This document shows positions 41,272-63,669 of a stretch of 64,000 nucleotides of DNA, piece by piece. Position 1 is the stretch's first letter. The number at the start of each line of letters is the position of its first letter. Made by a program: the position numbers and the translations under genes. The stretch lies in NCBI RefSeq assembly GCF_988242995.1, contig NZ_OZ547043.1; one strand, given 5' to 3'. The notes under the pieces are model-generated. The model was given only the letters and a program-made list of their open reading frames with translations. It was not told the DNA's origin and ran no database searches.

Positions 41272-41516
41272 GATCGTCTCTGGTTCAGGAAGTATTACAG
41301 GCAGTGTTGTGCAAATTTTGCGGATTATCAAATCCTTTTCTTCAACGCTATGTCATCGATCTTGTATCACCTTTTTGCCGGAAGTTGTTTGCATTTTCAT
41401 TGATGGTCAGATATTAGAATTGTCGTAATGTTATATACATGGCGTATTTTATTCTTACTGGTTCTACACATGTTAATCGCATCTGATTGATCAGTTCACC
41501 TTAATAAGTTTAATAA

Positions 41517-41561: not shown

Positions 41562-42200
41562 TTACATGAAGAATGGCTTGTCGCCATCAGTCCCGGGTTG
41601 ATTGATTCCTATATTCTCACCAATGTGTTTCTCAGGTTTATCGATGATATCTGTAATTAATGCTGCGACACTCTTACGTGATACGATCGTACCTTTGAAT
41701 GGTTCATTGCGTGAGGTAAGCTCATAATCAATAATATCTTCATCGGTCAGCCAGGCAGGGCGAAGAATTGTATATTCCAGTCCAGAAGCCTCAATTGCAT
41801 CCGCAGCCCTGCGGAATGGTTTTAGGGGTTCACCAATAACTGCATTATTCCATTCGCCAAATTTTCCTGGAACTTCATCATAAATACCGAGGGAAAGAAC
41901 AAAGATCAGACGTTTAACATCACAGGCTTTCATCGCAGCGATCACTGAATTTGCCTGAATATCTAAATCTTCCCCCGTAAGGTTGGCATACACAACATCC
42001 TGTCCCTGCATGGCCTGCTTCAGTGCTGCATGATTCAGTACATCCCCCATAATAATCTTGCTATTAGTGGGATAGGGTTTGTGGATTTTTGCTGGCTGAC
42101 GGGCAAATAAAGTTTGTTTAATGGTTTGTTTATCTGCCAGTTGATTAATCACATGGCGGGCTATCTGACCGCCAGCACCAAGAATCAGTACATTTTTCAT
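41562..42200 (-). CDS. ymjC: NAD(P)-binding (NmrA/atypical SDR-like) oxidoreductase, 212 aa; intact counterpart of K-12 ymjC
   Basis: Rossmann motif LILGAGGQIA near the N-terminus; full-length ORF between mpaA and ycjY. Confidence 0.65.
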   Translation of the reverse strand: MKNVLILGAGGQIARHVINQLADKQTIKQTLFARQPAKIHKPYPTNSKIIMGDVLNHAALKQAMQGQDVVYANLTGEDLDIQANSVIAAMKACDVKRLIFVLSLGIYDEVPGKFGEWNNAVIGEPLKPFRRAADAIEASGLEYTILRPAWLTDEDIIDYELTSRNEPFKGTIVSRKSVAALITDIIDKPEKHIGENIGINQPGTDGDKPFFM

Positions 42201-42270: not shown

Positions 42271-43191
42271 TTACAGAGTTTCCTCAAAGAACGGAGCTAA
42301 TACTGAAATTGCTTCAGCCACATAGACTTTGCCGTCATAAAGATCCATATGGTTTGCGCCTTCAACAATGTGATAGCGTTTATCCTGGCTTGATGCTCGA
42401 TCGTACAGGTCGTCACTCATCCATTTGCTCCCAGCCTGGCTGCCCGCCACAATCTGTATCGGCTGAGTCAGGTACACTTCCGCCATATGGTAAGCATCAT
42501 AGGTAATAATCTGGTTAAGGCTGCGCAAAGTAGCGTAACCCGGTGCTGTTGGGTACTGCGCGCGAGGGGTGTGGTAATACTCCCAGGCCTGACGCAGTTC
42601 TTCGTTCGGCGCATCGGACTCCTTCATTGGTGCCAGTGGCATAGTGGCGTATTCTCCGCTGCTAATATCGCTGGTTCGGGCGTTTGAACCCGCGTCAACG
42701 TATGGTAGGGCATCAATAGATTTCACATTGTTTTCCCAACCATTACGGAACATCGAACCAATATTGACCGCACTAACAGTACCGATGGCCTTGATGCGGC
42801 GATCCTGAATTGCAGCATTGGCTGTATATCCTGCACCGGCACAAATTCCCATCGCACCAATTCGGCTATTGTCGACATAAGAAAGCGTTGTCAGGTAATC
42901 AATCACGGCACTGACGTCTTCAGTACGAATGTATGGGTTTTCTAACTGACGCGGCTCGCCGCCGCTTTCACCTTGATAAGATGCGTCATAAGCAATAGTG
43001 ACAAATCCCTTTTCCGCCAGTTTTTCGGCATAGGTTCCGGCCGTTTGCTCTTTAACGCCCCCACCTGGGTGAGATACCACAATTGCCGGATACTGACGGG
43101 TTTCATCAAATTTTGGAGGGAAATAGATCACTGCAGACAAAGAGATGGTTGGATTATTGCTGTTAGTGAAGCTGACTTTATTATTCATCAT
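42271..43191 (-). CDS. ycjY: YcjY, alpha/beta hydrolase (dienelactone hydrolase/S9-like), ~306 aa
   Basis: Hydrolase fold with GICAGAG nucleophile elbow; start approximate (ORF extends to 43203). Confidence 0.8.
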   Translation of the reverse strand: MMNNKVSFTNSNNPTISLSAVIYFPPKFDETRQYPAIVVSHPGGGVKEQTAGTYAEKLAEKGFVTIAYDASYQGESGGEPRQLENPYIRTEDVSAVIDYLTTLSYVDNSRIGAMGICAGAGYTANAAIQDRRIKAIGTVSAVNIGSMFRNGWENNVKSIDALPYVDAGSNARTSDISSGEYATMPLAPMKESDAPNEELRQAWEYYHTPRAQYPTAPGYATLRSLNQIITYDAYHMAEVYLTQPIQIVAGSQAGSKWMSDDLYDRASSQDKRYHIVEGANHMDLYDGKVYVAEAISVLAPFFEETL

Positions 43192-43328
43192 TCCGTTCCT
43201 CATGGAGTTGTCGGTTCGTTTTAACGGTTGGTGATATCACTATAGATATTGATCATTAAGTTGATTAGACCCAAAATCATGATTAGACCTATCATTTAAA
43301 TGATTAATAGATTGTATGGAGATACTGA

Positions 43329-44228
43329 ATGAAGCGTGAAGAAATCGCTGATCTGATGGCGTTTGTCGTCGTTGCAGAGGAGCGTAGCTTCACTCGCGCA
43401 GCAGCCCGCCTGAGCATGGCGCAGTCAGCTTTAAGCCAGATAGTGCGCCGTATAGAAGAACGATTGGGATTGCGGCTTCTGACGCGAACCACGCGCAGCG
43501 TTGTACCCACTGAAGCGGGCGAGCATCTTTTGTCTGTTCTTGGCCCTATGTTGCATGACATAGATTCTGCCCTGACATCCCTGAGCGATCTGCAGAACCG
43601 CCCATCCGGGACAATACGTATTACTACTGTAGAACATGCAGCAAAAACGATATTGTTACCAGCTATGCGCACATTCCTGAAATCGCATCCTGAAATTGAT
43701 ATCCAGCTTACCATTGATTATGGTTTGACCGATGTCGTTTCTGAACGTTTTGATGCAGGCGTCCGTCTGGGTGGGGAGATGGATAAAGATATGATCGCCA
43801 TTCGAATCGGGCCAGATATACCAATGGCTATTGTTGGCTCACCGGATTATTTTTCTCGTCGAAGTGCTCCAACGTCAGTGTCACAATTAATAGATCATCA
43901 GGCAATTAATTTGTATCTTCCCACATCGGGTACAGCAAATCGCTGGAGATTAATACGCGGTGGACGTGAAGTTCGTGTTCGCATGGAAGGTCAGCTTTTA
44001 CTGAATACGATAGACCTGATCATTGATGCTGCAATTGATGGGCATGGATTGGCGTATCTACCTTATGATCAGGTTGAGCGGGCTATTAAAGAAAAAAAAC
44101 TGATACGTGTTTTGGATAAATTCACACCAGATTTACCCGGTTATCACCTGTACTATCCACACCGTCGACATGCTGGCTCGGCATTCTCATTATTTATAGA
44201 TAGGCTGAAGTATAAAGGTGCTGTTTAG
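43329..44228 (+). CDS. pgrR: LysR-type regulator PgrR (YcjZ), 299 aa
   Basis: LysR HTH (FTRAAARLSMAQSALSQIVRRIEERLGLRLLTR); divergent from ycjY. Confidence 0.88.
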   Translation: MKREEIADLMAFVVVAEERSFTRAAARLSMAQSALSQIVRRIEERLGLRLLTRTTRSVVPTEAGEHLLSVLGPMLHDIDSALTSLSDLQNRPSGTIRITTVEHAAKTILLPAMRTFLKSHPEIDIQLTIDYGLTDVVSERFDAGVRLGGEMDKDMIAIRIGPDIPMAIVGSPDYFSRRSAPTSVSQLIDHQAINLYLPTSGTANRWRLIRGGREVRVRMEGQLLLNTIDLIIDAAIDGHGLAYLPYDQVERAIKEKKLIRVLDKFTPDLPGYHLYYPHRRHAGSAFSLFIDRLKYKGAV

Positions 44229-44564
44229 CACTACTTGCTGATACATTAATTTAATTCTTCTCTTAACGTATTCTCAGTTCCTTTCAACGTTTTGGTCATT
44301 TTTTATTCTTCGTACAATGGCGACAGATGCTGATTATGATACCGAAAACGGGTTTGAACGTGCGAAGCCCGAACGTAGTGTTCGGAGTTCTATGTGCTTT
44401 ACCGCATTTTGGAGACTATTATTTACACTAAATCTGATTTGATATATTGATACTTAAAACATTTGATGCTTCCTTTGTCACTTTTTTGATGGAAGTTGTT
44501 TGCATTTCTTTAAGGCGAAACAAATAATTACGCATCAATTTTAATGTCGGTTAGAGGGAAACTT

Positions 44565-51948: not shown

Positions 51949-53394
51949 TTATTTTAAAGGTGACGGTGTCACGTTTTTCGGGATAGGGCAGTGATACGGT
52001 TGCGTGTCCGTAACTTGCTGATGCTCTTGTTGGCATTCTTGCAATAGCCCTGAATCAATGAAGAGATTAAGTGTGGTTGCTGCCATAGTTTTCGCCGCCA
52101 GCAGCATTCCTTTATGAGCAATAGATGTTCGCCCCTGGCTAACCAGTTGCCACGTATGTAGCGGGGTACCGACGGCAAAGCAGGGGCTGAAACACTGGGC
52201 AACAGGCAGTTTCCAACTGACGTCGCCGACATCAGTCGATGCCGCAAGCACGTTATCGGTGGCGGCATATGGAGCGACTTCATTCGCCAGTACCGTTTCA
52301 CGATGACGTAGTGCAAAAGCCTTGCCGTTTTCGCCACCGGTTGCAGCGATATTATTCAGACTGTTTTGCCGATCGTTGGGGGTGAGCGTAGCCTGAATTT
52401 GTTTCGCAAAAGCCAGTTCTTCGCAGTTCCATTCCGGAGTACCAAAATGGGATAGGGCCTGGTACATGGCATTTTCTAAGGTGCGATTCGGGAGATAACT
52501 GGAACAGGCTTTGTCGAAGCGGCATTCAACCGTGGTTTCGGTCATCAATGCCGCACCTTCGGCGATTTTGGCGACCCGATCATAAATATGCTGCACATCG
52601 GTCATTTCGGGGGCGCGGATAAGATAAAGCACTTCTGCCTGCGCCTGGACCACGTTGGGCGAGATCCCGCCGCTATCTATGATGGCATAGTGTACGCGCG
52701 CTTTTTCAATAATATGTTCGTTGAGGAAGTTGGTGCCAGTGGTCATCAACGTTACGGCATCAAGGGCGCTGCGTCCCAAATGAGGGGAGTTCGCGGCATG
52801 TGCTGCGATCCCTTTAAAGCGCCATGATGCCTGAATGTTTGCCAGCGTGCGGGTATTGAACATACCGGCAAAGGCTTCCGGGTGCCAGGTGAGTGCCGCA
52901 TCCACATCATCAAATACCCCCTCGCGGACCATGAACGCTTTACCCGAGCCGCCTTCTTCGCCAGGACAACCATAAAAGCGCACCGTGCCGCCTTGCCCAT
53001 ATTGTTCCAGCCATTTCTTGACGGCTATTGCTGCGGCAAAGGCGGCGGTTCCCAGCAAATTGTGTCCGCAACCGTGACCATTTTCACCGGGCGTCGCGGA
53101 TGTAGGTTGCGCGCAACCTGCTTGCTGACTTAAACCTGCCAGGGCGTCATATTCCCCCAGCAGGGCGATAACCGGTTTGCCTTGACCAAACGAAGCAATA
53201 AAGGCATTTGGGATATTGCCTACGTTGCGGGTAACGGTGAAGCCTGCAGACTCCAGCGCCGAAGCCAGATGCTCCGCTGACCAGAACTCTTCAAAACGTG
53301 TTTCTGGATGATCCCAGATTTGATCGGCAATATCGGTATAACGTTGGCGATCGGCTTCAATCGCATCGTCGATAAAACGATAGATTTCCTGCAT
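51949..53394 (-). CDS. abgB: p-aminobenzoyl-glutamate hydrolase subunit B (M20 peptidase), 481 aa
   Basis: M20-family metallopeptidase; abg operon context. Confidence 0.9.
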   Translation of the reverse strand: MQEIYRFIDDAIEADRQRYTDIADQIWDHPETRFEEFWSAEHLASALESAGFTVTRNVGNIPNAFIASFGQGKPVIALLGEYDALAGLSQQAGCAQPTSATPGENGHGCGHNLLGTAAFAAAIAVKKWLEQYGQGGTVRFYGCPGEEGGSGKAFMVREGVFDDVDAALTWHPEAFAGMFNTRTLANIQASWRFKGIAAHAANSPHLGRSALDAVTLMTTGTNFLNEHIIEKARVHYAIIDSGGISPNVVQAQAEVLYLIRAPEMTDVQHIYDRVAKIAEGAALMTETTVECRFDKACSSYLPNRTLENAMYQALSHFGTPEWNCEELAFAKQIQATLTPNDRQNSLNNIAATGGENGKAFALRHRETVLANEVAPYAATDNVLAASTDVGDVSWKLPVAQCFSPCFAVGTPLHTWQLVSQGRTSIAHKGMLLAAKTMAATTLNLFIDSGLLQECQQEHQQVTDTQPYHCPIPKNVTPSPLK

Positions 53395-61151: not shown

Positions 61152-62087
61152 TTATTTCACTTCAACCACATTCAGTCGTAACTCATCCAACTGATTTTCA
61201 TCTTCTTCAGGCTGCCAACCCGCCGGTTGTAGAGGGAGCTCTTCGCGATCAAACGCCAGATCACCCCCGTTAACAACTTCAGAACCGTGGGTAATGCCTT
61301 TGAAATCGAACAGGTTGGTATCGCACAGATGCGACGGCACCACATTCTGCATCGCGCTGAACATCGTCTCGATACGCCCCGGATAACGTTTATCCCAATC
61401 ACGCAACATGTCAGCAATCACCTGACGTTGCAGGTTAGGCTGTGAACCGCACAGGTTGCACGGAATAATCGGGAACGCTTTTGCATCGGCAAAGCGCTGA
61501 ATATCTTTCTCGCGGCAGTAGGCCAGCGGACGAATCACAATATGCTTGCCATCATCGCTCATCAGTTTCGGAGGCATACCTTTCATCTTGCCGCCGTAGA
61601 ACATATTTAAGAACAACGTTTGCAGGATATCGTCACGATGGTGACCCAGCGCGATCTTCGTCGCTCCCAGTTCCGTTGCGGTACGATAAAGGATACCGCG
61701 ACGAAGACGAGAACACAGTGAGCAAGTGGTTTTGCCCTCTGGAATTTTCTCTTTCACGATACCGTAAGTGTTCTCTTCCACAATCTTGTACTCAACGCCC
61801 AGCTTTTCAAGATACTCGGGCAGAACGTGTTCCGGGAAGCCCGGTTGCTTTTGATCGAGGTTAACAGCCACCAGCGAAAAATTGATTGGCGCGCTTTGCT
61901 GCAAATTGCGCAGAATCTCCAGCATGGTATAGCTGTCTTTACCCCCGGAGAGGCAAACCATGATGCGATCGCCTTCTTCAATCATATTGAAGTCAGCAAT
62001 GGCTTCGCCCACGTTACGACGCAGACGTTTTTGTAATTTGTTCAGGTTGTATTGTTCTTTCTTTGTAATTTGTTGATTTTCTTGCAT
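61152..62087 (-). CDS. ttcA: tRNA 2-thiocytidine biosynthesis protein TtcA, 311 aa
   Basis: PP-loop motif CLSGGKDS and paired CxxC motifs; start [30 protein letters not shown]. Confidence 0.92.
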
Positions 62088-63591: not shown

Positions 63592-63669
63592 CGCATCACC
63601 TCTGGCAGGCGCCAATGTTAGACTGAAATTGACGCCCGATGTTGATTATTAATAATCAGCTATGAAGTT

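Follow-up and report, generated by a model that had tools for sequence, protein, structure and literature searches.

What do the short direct repeat and the perfect palindrome between the divergent ycjY and pgrR genes represent: an operator for the LysR-type regulator encoded beside them, the core of two promoters, the site of some other protein, or coincidence? The window we analyzed, a 64,000-nucleotide (64-kb) stretch of Escherichia coli chromosome, has the gene order tpx, ycjG, mpaA (minus strand), an intact SDR gene, ycjY (minus strand), pgrR (plus strand), and mppA (plus strand), and a 351-bp segment containing the repeats and palindrome is matched in 5,226 of 5,426 complete E. coli genomes, with ycjY and pgrR as the annotated genes. 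Two genes delimit the spacer:

42271 to 43191, minus strand: ycjY, alpha/beta hydrolase and divergent target gene, 306 aa from the annotated start (open reading frame, RefSeq, domain match)
43329 to 44228, plus strand: pgrR (ycjZ), LysR-type transcriptional regulator, 299 aa (open reading frame, RefSeq, Pfam)

PgrR belongs to the LysR family by its Pfam domains, HTH_1 (PF00126, 1.6e-21) and LysR_substrate (PF03466, 1.5e-35), and its nearest solved structures are the full-length LysR regulators 3mz1, AphB (3szp), and CrgA (3hhg). The RefSeq start of ycjY at 43191 has a conserved GAGGAA Shine-Dalgarno sequence on the minus strand (43196 to 43201) and agrees with the alignment, while the ATG of the longest open reading frame (43203) is missing from distant orthologues. 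The spacer is therefore 137 bp long (43192 to 43328), with a G+C content of 31 to 37%; the first-pass annotation was right that the genes diverge, but its length of 125 bp holds only with the 43203 ATG. The SDR/NAD(P)H-binding gene is intact in the present strain (41562 to 42200, minus strand, 212 aa); its K-12 counterpart consists of the ymjC/ymjD pseudogene fragments, and some E. coli strains keep just a fragment of it.

The region from 43252 to 43304 is an array of ATCA/TGAT half-sites, with the following elements:

43262 to 43271, plus strand: direct repeat copy 1, TGATTAGACC (exact match), its TGAT forming the right half of site A
43280 to 43289, plus strand: direct repeat copy 2, TGATTAGACC (exact match), adjoining the palindrome, its TGAT forming the right half of weak site M
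43291 to 43304, no strand: perfect 14-bp palindrome ATCATTTAAATGAT, the dyad ATCA-N6-TGAT, proposed as the high-affinity PgrR recognition site (RS) from sequence and conservation
43252 to 43265, no strand: site A, ATCATTAAGTTGAT, a second ATCA-N6-TGAT dyad with a nonpalindromic center (8/8 half-site bases)
43270 to 43283, no strand: site M, CCCAAAATCATGAT, a weak and speculative N6-type site found in enterics only (6/8 half-site positions; sequence and alignment)

The repeat TGATTAGACC is found exactly twice within the 64-kb window. Its second copy lies where the first-pass annotation had placed it and the first copy begins one base earlier than given there; the palindrome, described as directly following the repeat, does adjoin it, with a single T (43290) intervening. 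The perfect 14-bp palindrome itself can be read directly at the positions originally reported and cannot be extended, being flanked by T on both sides; its conserved flanks are T43290 and TAAT at 43305 to 43308. The right half of site A is made up of the first four bases of repeat 1, and we propose site A as a lower-affinity, activation-site-like PgrR site; its center lies 39 bp from that of the RS, and the resulting phasing of 3.7 helical turns is unusual. Site M, which ends in the TGAT that starts repeat 2, is centered 21 bp from the RS. A mini-open reading frame of 10 codons (43300 to 43332) starts at an ATG within the right half of the palindrome, and its TGA overlaps the pgrR start codon (ATGA). 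This ATG and pgrR share a reading frame in Klebsiella and relatives, giving rise to many 309-aa database entries in place of the 299-aa protein, and since the sequence between the two starts is not conserved, the 10-aa extension is probably an annotation artifact.

How readily would such features arise by chance? Among 20,000 dinucleotide shuffles of the spacer, 138 had an exact direct repeat (10 bp or longer, within 40 bp), 283 had a perfect palindrome (14 bp or longer), and a single one had both. Across the 64-kb window, perfect palindromes of this length number 5 (4.25 expected), and 10-mers that recur within 40 bp are found at 2 loci (2.2 expected). Each feature alone is thus at chance level in a scan of this size, and it is their co-location in one LysR divergent spacer and, above all, their conservation that give them meaning. 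Other exact features of the window include the 16-bp palindromes TGATTATTAATAATCA (63643 to 63658) and AGGTTGCGCGCAACCT (53104 to 53119) and the 13-nt direct repeat TTTGTAATTTGTT, with copies 32 bp apart, at 62030 to 62075.

We assessed conservation in divergent pgrR/ycjY pairs from two sources. A scan of one genome per species located pairs in Citrobacter, Kluyvera, Pseudocitrobacter, Shimwellia, Serratia, and two MAGs. The best 120 PgrR protein matches were all at least 87% identical and hence uninformative, and mid-distance orthologues came instead via YcjY in a plasmid collection, which added pairs from Klebsiella variicola, Agrobacterium fabrum, A. pusense, Rhizobium tropici, and Kozakia (PgrR 61 to 88% identical). 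The comparison delimits one further element:

43238 to 43309 (~72 bp), no strand: conserved operator/promoter block, 81 to 92% identical to nine other genera

The genera that share this block at 81 to 92% identity are only 32 to 42% identical to E. coli at the 4-fold degenerate sites of pgrR, which corresponds to saturation, and just 3 to 6 of the 19 positions immediately before the pgrR ATG (43310 to 43328) match in other genera. Within the 11-sequence alignment, TATCATTTAAATGATTAAT is invariant in 10 sequences. Among enterics all bases of the block are conserved, and conservation does not separate operator from promoter bases. Within E. coli, the ~72-bp block is 100% identical in 4476 of 5220 genomes, including BW25113, and repeat 1 is polymorphic in some (G43268A). 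E. coli Z1323PEC0013 carries an IS1A insertion between the two repeats (equivalent to 43268 to 43276) with a 9-bp target duplication, GACCCAAAA; this insertion parts the ycjY promoter side from the palindrome and constitutes a natural operator-disruption mutant.

A dyad of the form A[TC][CT]A-N6-TGAT is present just upstream of pgrR in all 17 divergent pgrR/ycjY pairs, which span nine-plus genera and include alphaproteobacterial plasmids. The exact ATCA left half is retained in 16 of the 17 spacers, and the most distant, from gamma MAG L010 (PgrR 58% identity), reads ATTA-TTCTGG-TGAT. The half-sites are fixed, whereas the inner 6 nucleotides vary (TTTAAA, TTGAAA, CTGAGG, TTGAGA, CTGGAG, and TTCTGG), a signature of a protein dyad and not of a promoter hexamer or RNA stem. 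Anchored on the dyad, the spacers align without gaps except for those of A. pusense and gamma MAG L010. The dyad and the repeat 1 core are missing upstream of all three ycjY homologues that lack a neighboring pgrR (two from Pseudoalteromonas and one from Burkholderia). These sequences show directly that the features exist, that they are conserved, and that they co-occur with pgrR. The helix-turn-helix of PgrR is nearly identical in E. coli and A. fabrum, and the two proteins are therefore expected to share their DNA specificity. In the alphaproteobacterial loci L016, L020, L021, and L022 the dyad ends 2 nucleotides before the pgrR start codon and its variable center (CTGAGG, TTGAGA, or CTGGAG) doubles as a Shine-Dalgarno sequence; in the enteric lineage, ~22 extra unconserved bases separate dyad and ATG.

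The remaining elements are conserved to different depths. Enterics, A. fabrum, R. tropici, and Kozakia keep the repeat 1 core, GATTAGAC, at a distance of 29 nucleotides upstream of the dyad. Other enterics have TGATTGGACT at repeat 2, and alphaproteobacteria a degenerate sequence (TTrGnCC), so the exact 10/10 identity of the two repeats is specific to Escherichia. Site A is retained as ATCA/ATTA...TGAT in enterics, while alphaproteobacteria keep its right half only, as (C/G)GAT; in A. pusense a second dyad, CTATCATTCCATGATAG, is complete and lies ~31 bp from the RS. Selection acts on the palindrome and on the repeat 1 core, but not on the 10-bp repeat as an exact unit. We consider the exact repeat most likely a by-product of a TGAT half-site combined with TAGACC/TCTAAT promoter-like hexamers, duplicated or convergent in Escherichia, and probably not a separately recognized element.

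These half-sites overlap predicted promoters on both strands, for which two -10 elements are the anchors:

43290 to 43295, plus strand: TATCAT, predicted pgrR -10, over the left half of the palindrome (consensus scan 9/12)
43239 to 43244, minus strand: TATAGT, candidate ycjY -10 (invariant in the 11-sequence alignment; scan 8/12)

The predicted pgrR -35 is the TAGACC of repeat 1 (43266 to 43271), separated from TATCAT by an 18-bp spacer, and the same hexamers were predicted from genomic SELEX (gSELEX) with RpoD holoenzyme (PMC3946193). The palindrome would thus lie over the predicted -10 to about +3 of pgrR. For ycjY two incompatible promoters have been proposed, both of them consensus predictions. 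The candidate -10 TATAGT, whose alignment column keeps TAnnnT in all lineages (TAGATT, TACCAT, and TATATT in distant orthologues), pairs with a weak -35, TAATCA; the alternative, ATGATA-19-TCTAAT, places the -10 at 43265 to 43270 (PMC3946193). Repeat 1 would contribute to either, its complement supplying the predicted -10 (TCTAAT) or -35 (TAATCA) hexamer. With the -10 at 43239 to 43244, the predicted ycjY start falls at ~43232, which would center the RS near -65, site M near -44, and site A near -26. Such a predicted geometry corresponds to the textbook LysR layout, in which the RS lies upstream and weaker sites lie over the -35 (PMC11495319). Although ycjY/pgrR has been cited as RpoE dependent (PMC5493296), the best match to the sigma-E consensus GGAACTT-N15-17-TCAAA is an unconvincing 7 to 8 of 12.

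Published data place PgrR at this spacer. Genomic SELEX of PgrR (YcjZ) gave a peak at ycjY/ycjZ, and the protein is listed as a repressor of ycjY-ymjDC-mpaA, ycjG, and ycjXF-tyrR (PMC5934670). Enrichment of PgrR at the pgrR promoter in DAP-seq was 5,632-fold, similar in magnitude to the 4,413 for LacI at lacZYA (supplementary table, PMC10505187). In PPTP-seq, knockdown of pgrR raised pgrR promoter activity by log2 0.97, which was confirmed with a titratable PgrR strain, and the ycjY promoter rose by log2 0.60, 0.28, and 0.34, in the same direction and below the threshold of that study (PMC10505187). PgrR binding at this spacer, repression of ycjY, and negative autoregulation are thus already known from published data. 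The 2013 PgrR study of Shimada, Yamazaki, and Ishihama (Genes Cells 18:123) reportedly also included gel shift and DNase I footprinting. The EMSA or footprinting check that the first-pass annotation proposed has in essence already been done in published work, so the operator is not a new discovery.

Taken together, we conclude with considerable confidence that 43252 to 43304 is a PgrR operator lying within the promoter region that serves ycjY and pgrR in both directions. The original suggestion of a LysR-type autoregulatory and target operator is supported by the LysR-family membership of PgrR, by a conserved dyad that tracks pgrR (17/17 versus 0/3), by the predicted promoter overlap, and by the published binding, repression, and autoregulation. 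Given its conservation and co-occurrence with pgrR, the palindrome is likely the high-affinity PgrR site. From this arrangement we infer the bases that PgrR contacts, a tetramer geometry, the promoter positions, and a role for a ligand. We hypothesize that the palindrome would be the recognition site for one PgrR dimer, with half-site centers 10 bp apart, and that the second dimer of the same tetramer would contact a less symmetric site toward ycjY, namely site A and/or weak site M. The bound tetramer would cover the predicted -35, -10, and +1 of pgrR together with the -35/-10 region of ycjY and, lying over both predicted promoters, would repress ycjY(-SDR-mpaA) and pgrR at once; either of the proposed ycjY promoters would be covered by a tetramer spanning 43252 to 43304. 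A ligand would presumably relieve or remodel PgrR binding.

The spacing of the dyad, T43292 to A43303, is T-N10-A, in place of the canonical LysR T-N11-A. That criterion is loose within the LysR-type transcriptional regulator (LTTR) family (PMC11495319), and the difference lowers the case for a canonical LTTR box, not that for an LTTR operator. Lack of conservation in alphaproteobacteria led us to reject TGAT-N7-ATCA (43280 to 43294), which would have been a canonical LysR box of 15 bp, and the best match to an ATAC-N7-GTAT-type motif was at background level.

Could the repeats and palindrome be merely the core sequence of two face-to-face sigma-70 promoters, with PgrR binding elsewhere or nonspecifically to AT-rich DNA? 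There are reasons to ask: TAGACC occurs in both repeats, each time 18 bp upstream of a -10-like hexamer (TATCAT and TAGATT), the repeat complement TCTAAT is used in the published ycjY promoter prediction, RpoD, RpoE, and RpoH holoenzymes bind the spacer in vitro without factors, and many other gSELEX targets of PgrR are AT-rich loci. Promoter hexamers, however, do not need a perfect dyad, ATCA and TGAT stay fixed at N6 while the bases between them change, and the alphaproteobacterial left half, TATCAC, lacks the -10 T at position 6. That the dyad tracks the presence of pgrR likewise counts against a promoter-only reading, and the DAP-seq enrichment implies a specific high-affinity site, so that we regard this explanation as unlikely; the promoter and operator readings overlap in any case and are not mutually exclusive. 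A site for another DNA-binding protein, such as Fur, H-NS, or IHF, appears more improbable still. The best match to the Fur box GATAATGATAATCATTATC, 13/19 at 43275 to 43293, is equaled or exceeded at only 15 window positions, hns knockdown raised ycjY promoter activity by log2 0.88 (PMC10505187), and the low G+C content of the spacer can be counted toward a nucleoid protein. But the Fur-like stretch, which coincides with repeat 2, is not conserved across orthologous promoters outside enterics, whereas the dyad is, and we rejected it as a Fur box on that ground; matches to the CRP, LexA, and IHF consensus sequences are at background level, and co-occurrence with pgrR in both alpha- and gammaproteobacteria would be unexpected for a global regulator of the host.

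We give very little credence to the palindrome being an RNA hairpin in the pgrR 5' leader or a DNA cruciform, or to the whole pattern being chance. The palindrome is able to fold, yet the hairpin amounts to merely -1.3 kcal/mol, the leader fold has a z score of +0.29, Rfam returned no match at an E value of ≤1, and the half-sites are invariant, with no compensatory changes. As for chance, one 14-bp palindrome and one 10-bp repeat would be expected somewhere in the window, but the joint occurrence of the two in the spacer shuffles is as rare as reported above and conservation is strong. The PgrR operator reading therefore remains the one we prefer, and it pins the published PgrR binding peak to one specific dyad.

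The ATCA-N6-TGAT dyad does not explain the whole published PgrR regulon, as far as can be judged by motif searches. Of the other genes in the window reported as PgrR targets, ycjG and ycjX lack it upstream, and the upstream regions of ycjG, ycjX, tyrR, mpaA, and mppA contain no convincing match, their 7/8 half-site hits (including the sole match in the tyrR spacer) occurring at chance frequency. In the knockdown data, ycjG rose by log2 0.72, 1.0, and 0.49, and ycjX did not rise (PMC10505187). As PgrR targets, ycjG and ycjX may be weak, indirect, or reached via a different sequence.

The genomic setting of the pgrR/ycjY pair bears on what its operator is for. Outside Escherichia, the pair never adjoins mpaA, mppA, ycjG, or any murein-recycling gene (loci L002 to L013, L016, and L019 to L022). 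It is usually accompanied by a second ycjY paralogue (~40% identical) and sometimes by an SDR or flavin oxidoreductase gene, and it often resides on plasmids beside IS21, IS1, ISNCY, or integrase genes. Citrobacter and Enterobacter have no genes between mpaA and mppA, which diverge across a spacer of 184 to 185 bp; the mpaA side of that spacer is matched in E. coli by 41272 to 41396, and the mppA side by 44471 to 44564. A 37-nt segment present once in Citrobacter occurs twice in E. coli (41360 to 41396 and 44471 to 44507; 84% identical), bracketing the 3.1-kb SDR-ycjY-pgrR block. The adjacency of mpaA and mppA elsewhere and the duplication of this segment around the block indicate that the 3.1-kb SDR-ycjY-pgrR block was inserted into what had been the mpaA-mppA spacer of the ancestor, and the conserved target of PgrR is ycjY. 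The duplicated segment also contains (44477 to 44490 and 41366 to 41379) a half-dyad-like TATCAC/GTCAC...TGAT sequence, GTCACTTTTTTGAT, with 7/8 half-site bases, upstream of mppA, which is at chance frequency.

We tentatively propose, as a reading that is possible but falls short of probable, that PgrR and its ATCA-N6-TGAT operator, with its off-canon T-N10-A box, are part of a horizontally mobile pgrR/ycjY cassette natively unrelated to peptidoglycan recycling. Its landing in the mpaA-mppA spacer, with the 37-bp duplication, would be the reason that PgrR appears to control mpaA, and the real signal would be a substrate or product of YcjY. The label "peptidoglycan recycling regulator" would then rest on an Escherichia-specific insertion, and if this is true, the search for the PgrR ligand should turn to YcjY chemistry. 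We found no account in the accessible literature of the cross-genus conservation of the dyad or of its link to a mobile ycjY cassette. The element is the operator of a known regulator at a known target, a sound but ordinary case; its definition across lineages and the insertion history are modest new points that leave the understanding of LysR regulators unchanged.

The layout resembles that of classical LTTR operators such as BenM/CatM at benA (ATAC-N7-GTAT; PMC11495319). As in those systems, the regulator and its target are transcribed in opposite directions from a short common spacer, a highly symmetric dyad lies next to or over the regulator's own promoter (predicted in the present case) with negative autoregulation, less symmetric sites lie 2 to 4 turns away over the target -35/-10 (likewise predicted), and the recognition site is ~65 bp upstream of the inferred target start. 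PgrR differs in that its dyad is of even length, one base under T-N11-A, in that a second full dyad lies 39 bp away, and in that the protein has been reported solely as a repressor, without a known inducer. AmpR-ampC offers a second parallel, also pairing a LysR regulator with a divergent target and a shared operator under a label tied to murein recycling. PgrR, in contrast, is not an orthologue of AmpR (its best NCBIfam hits, all below cutoff, are YafC, GcvA, and AaeR), its conserved partner is an alpha/beta hydrolase and not a beta-lactamase, and the pair has no murein gene as a neighbor outside Escherichia. A further parallel is PtrR (YneJ) at sad, an E. coli LysR regulator for which phylogenetic footprinting likewise identified a conserved 15-bp palindrome in a divergent spacer; there the regulator is another one and the motif, TTCACnAATnGAGAA, is of odd length, and the palindrome was confirmed by ChIP-exo (PMC9068703). 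With respect to the published PgrR regulon from gSELEX, DAP-seq (Baumgart et al. 2021), and PPTP-seq (PMC10505187), the locus, the protein, and the direction of regulation are the same, and the repeats and palindrome described here are the sequence underlying the binding peaks.
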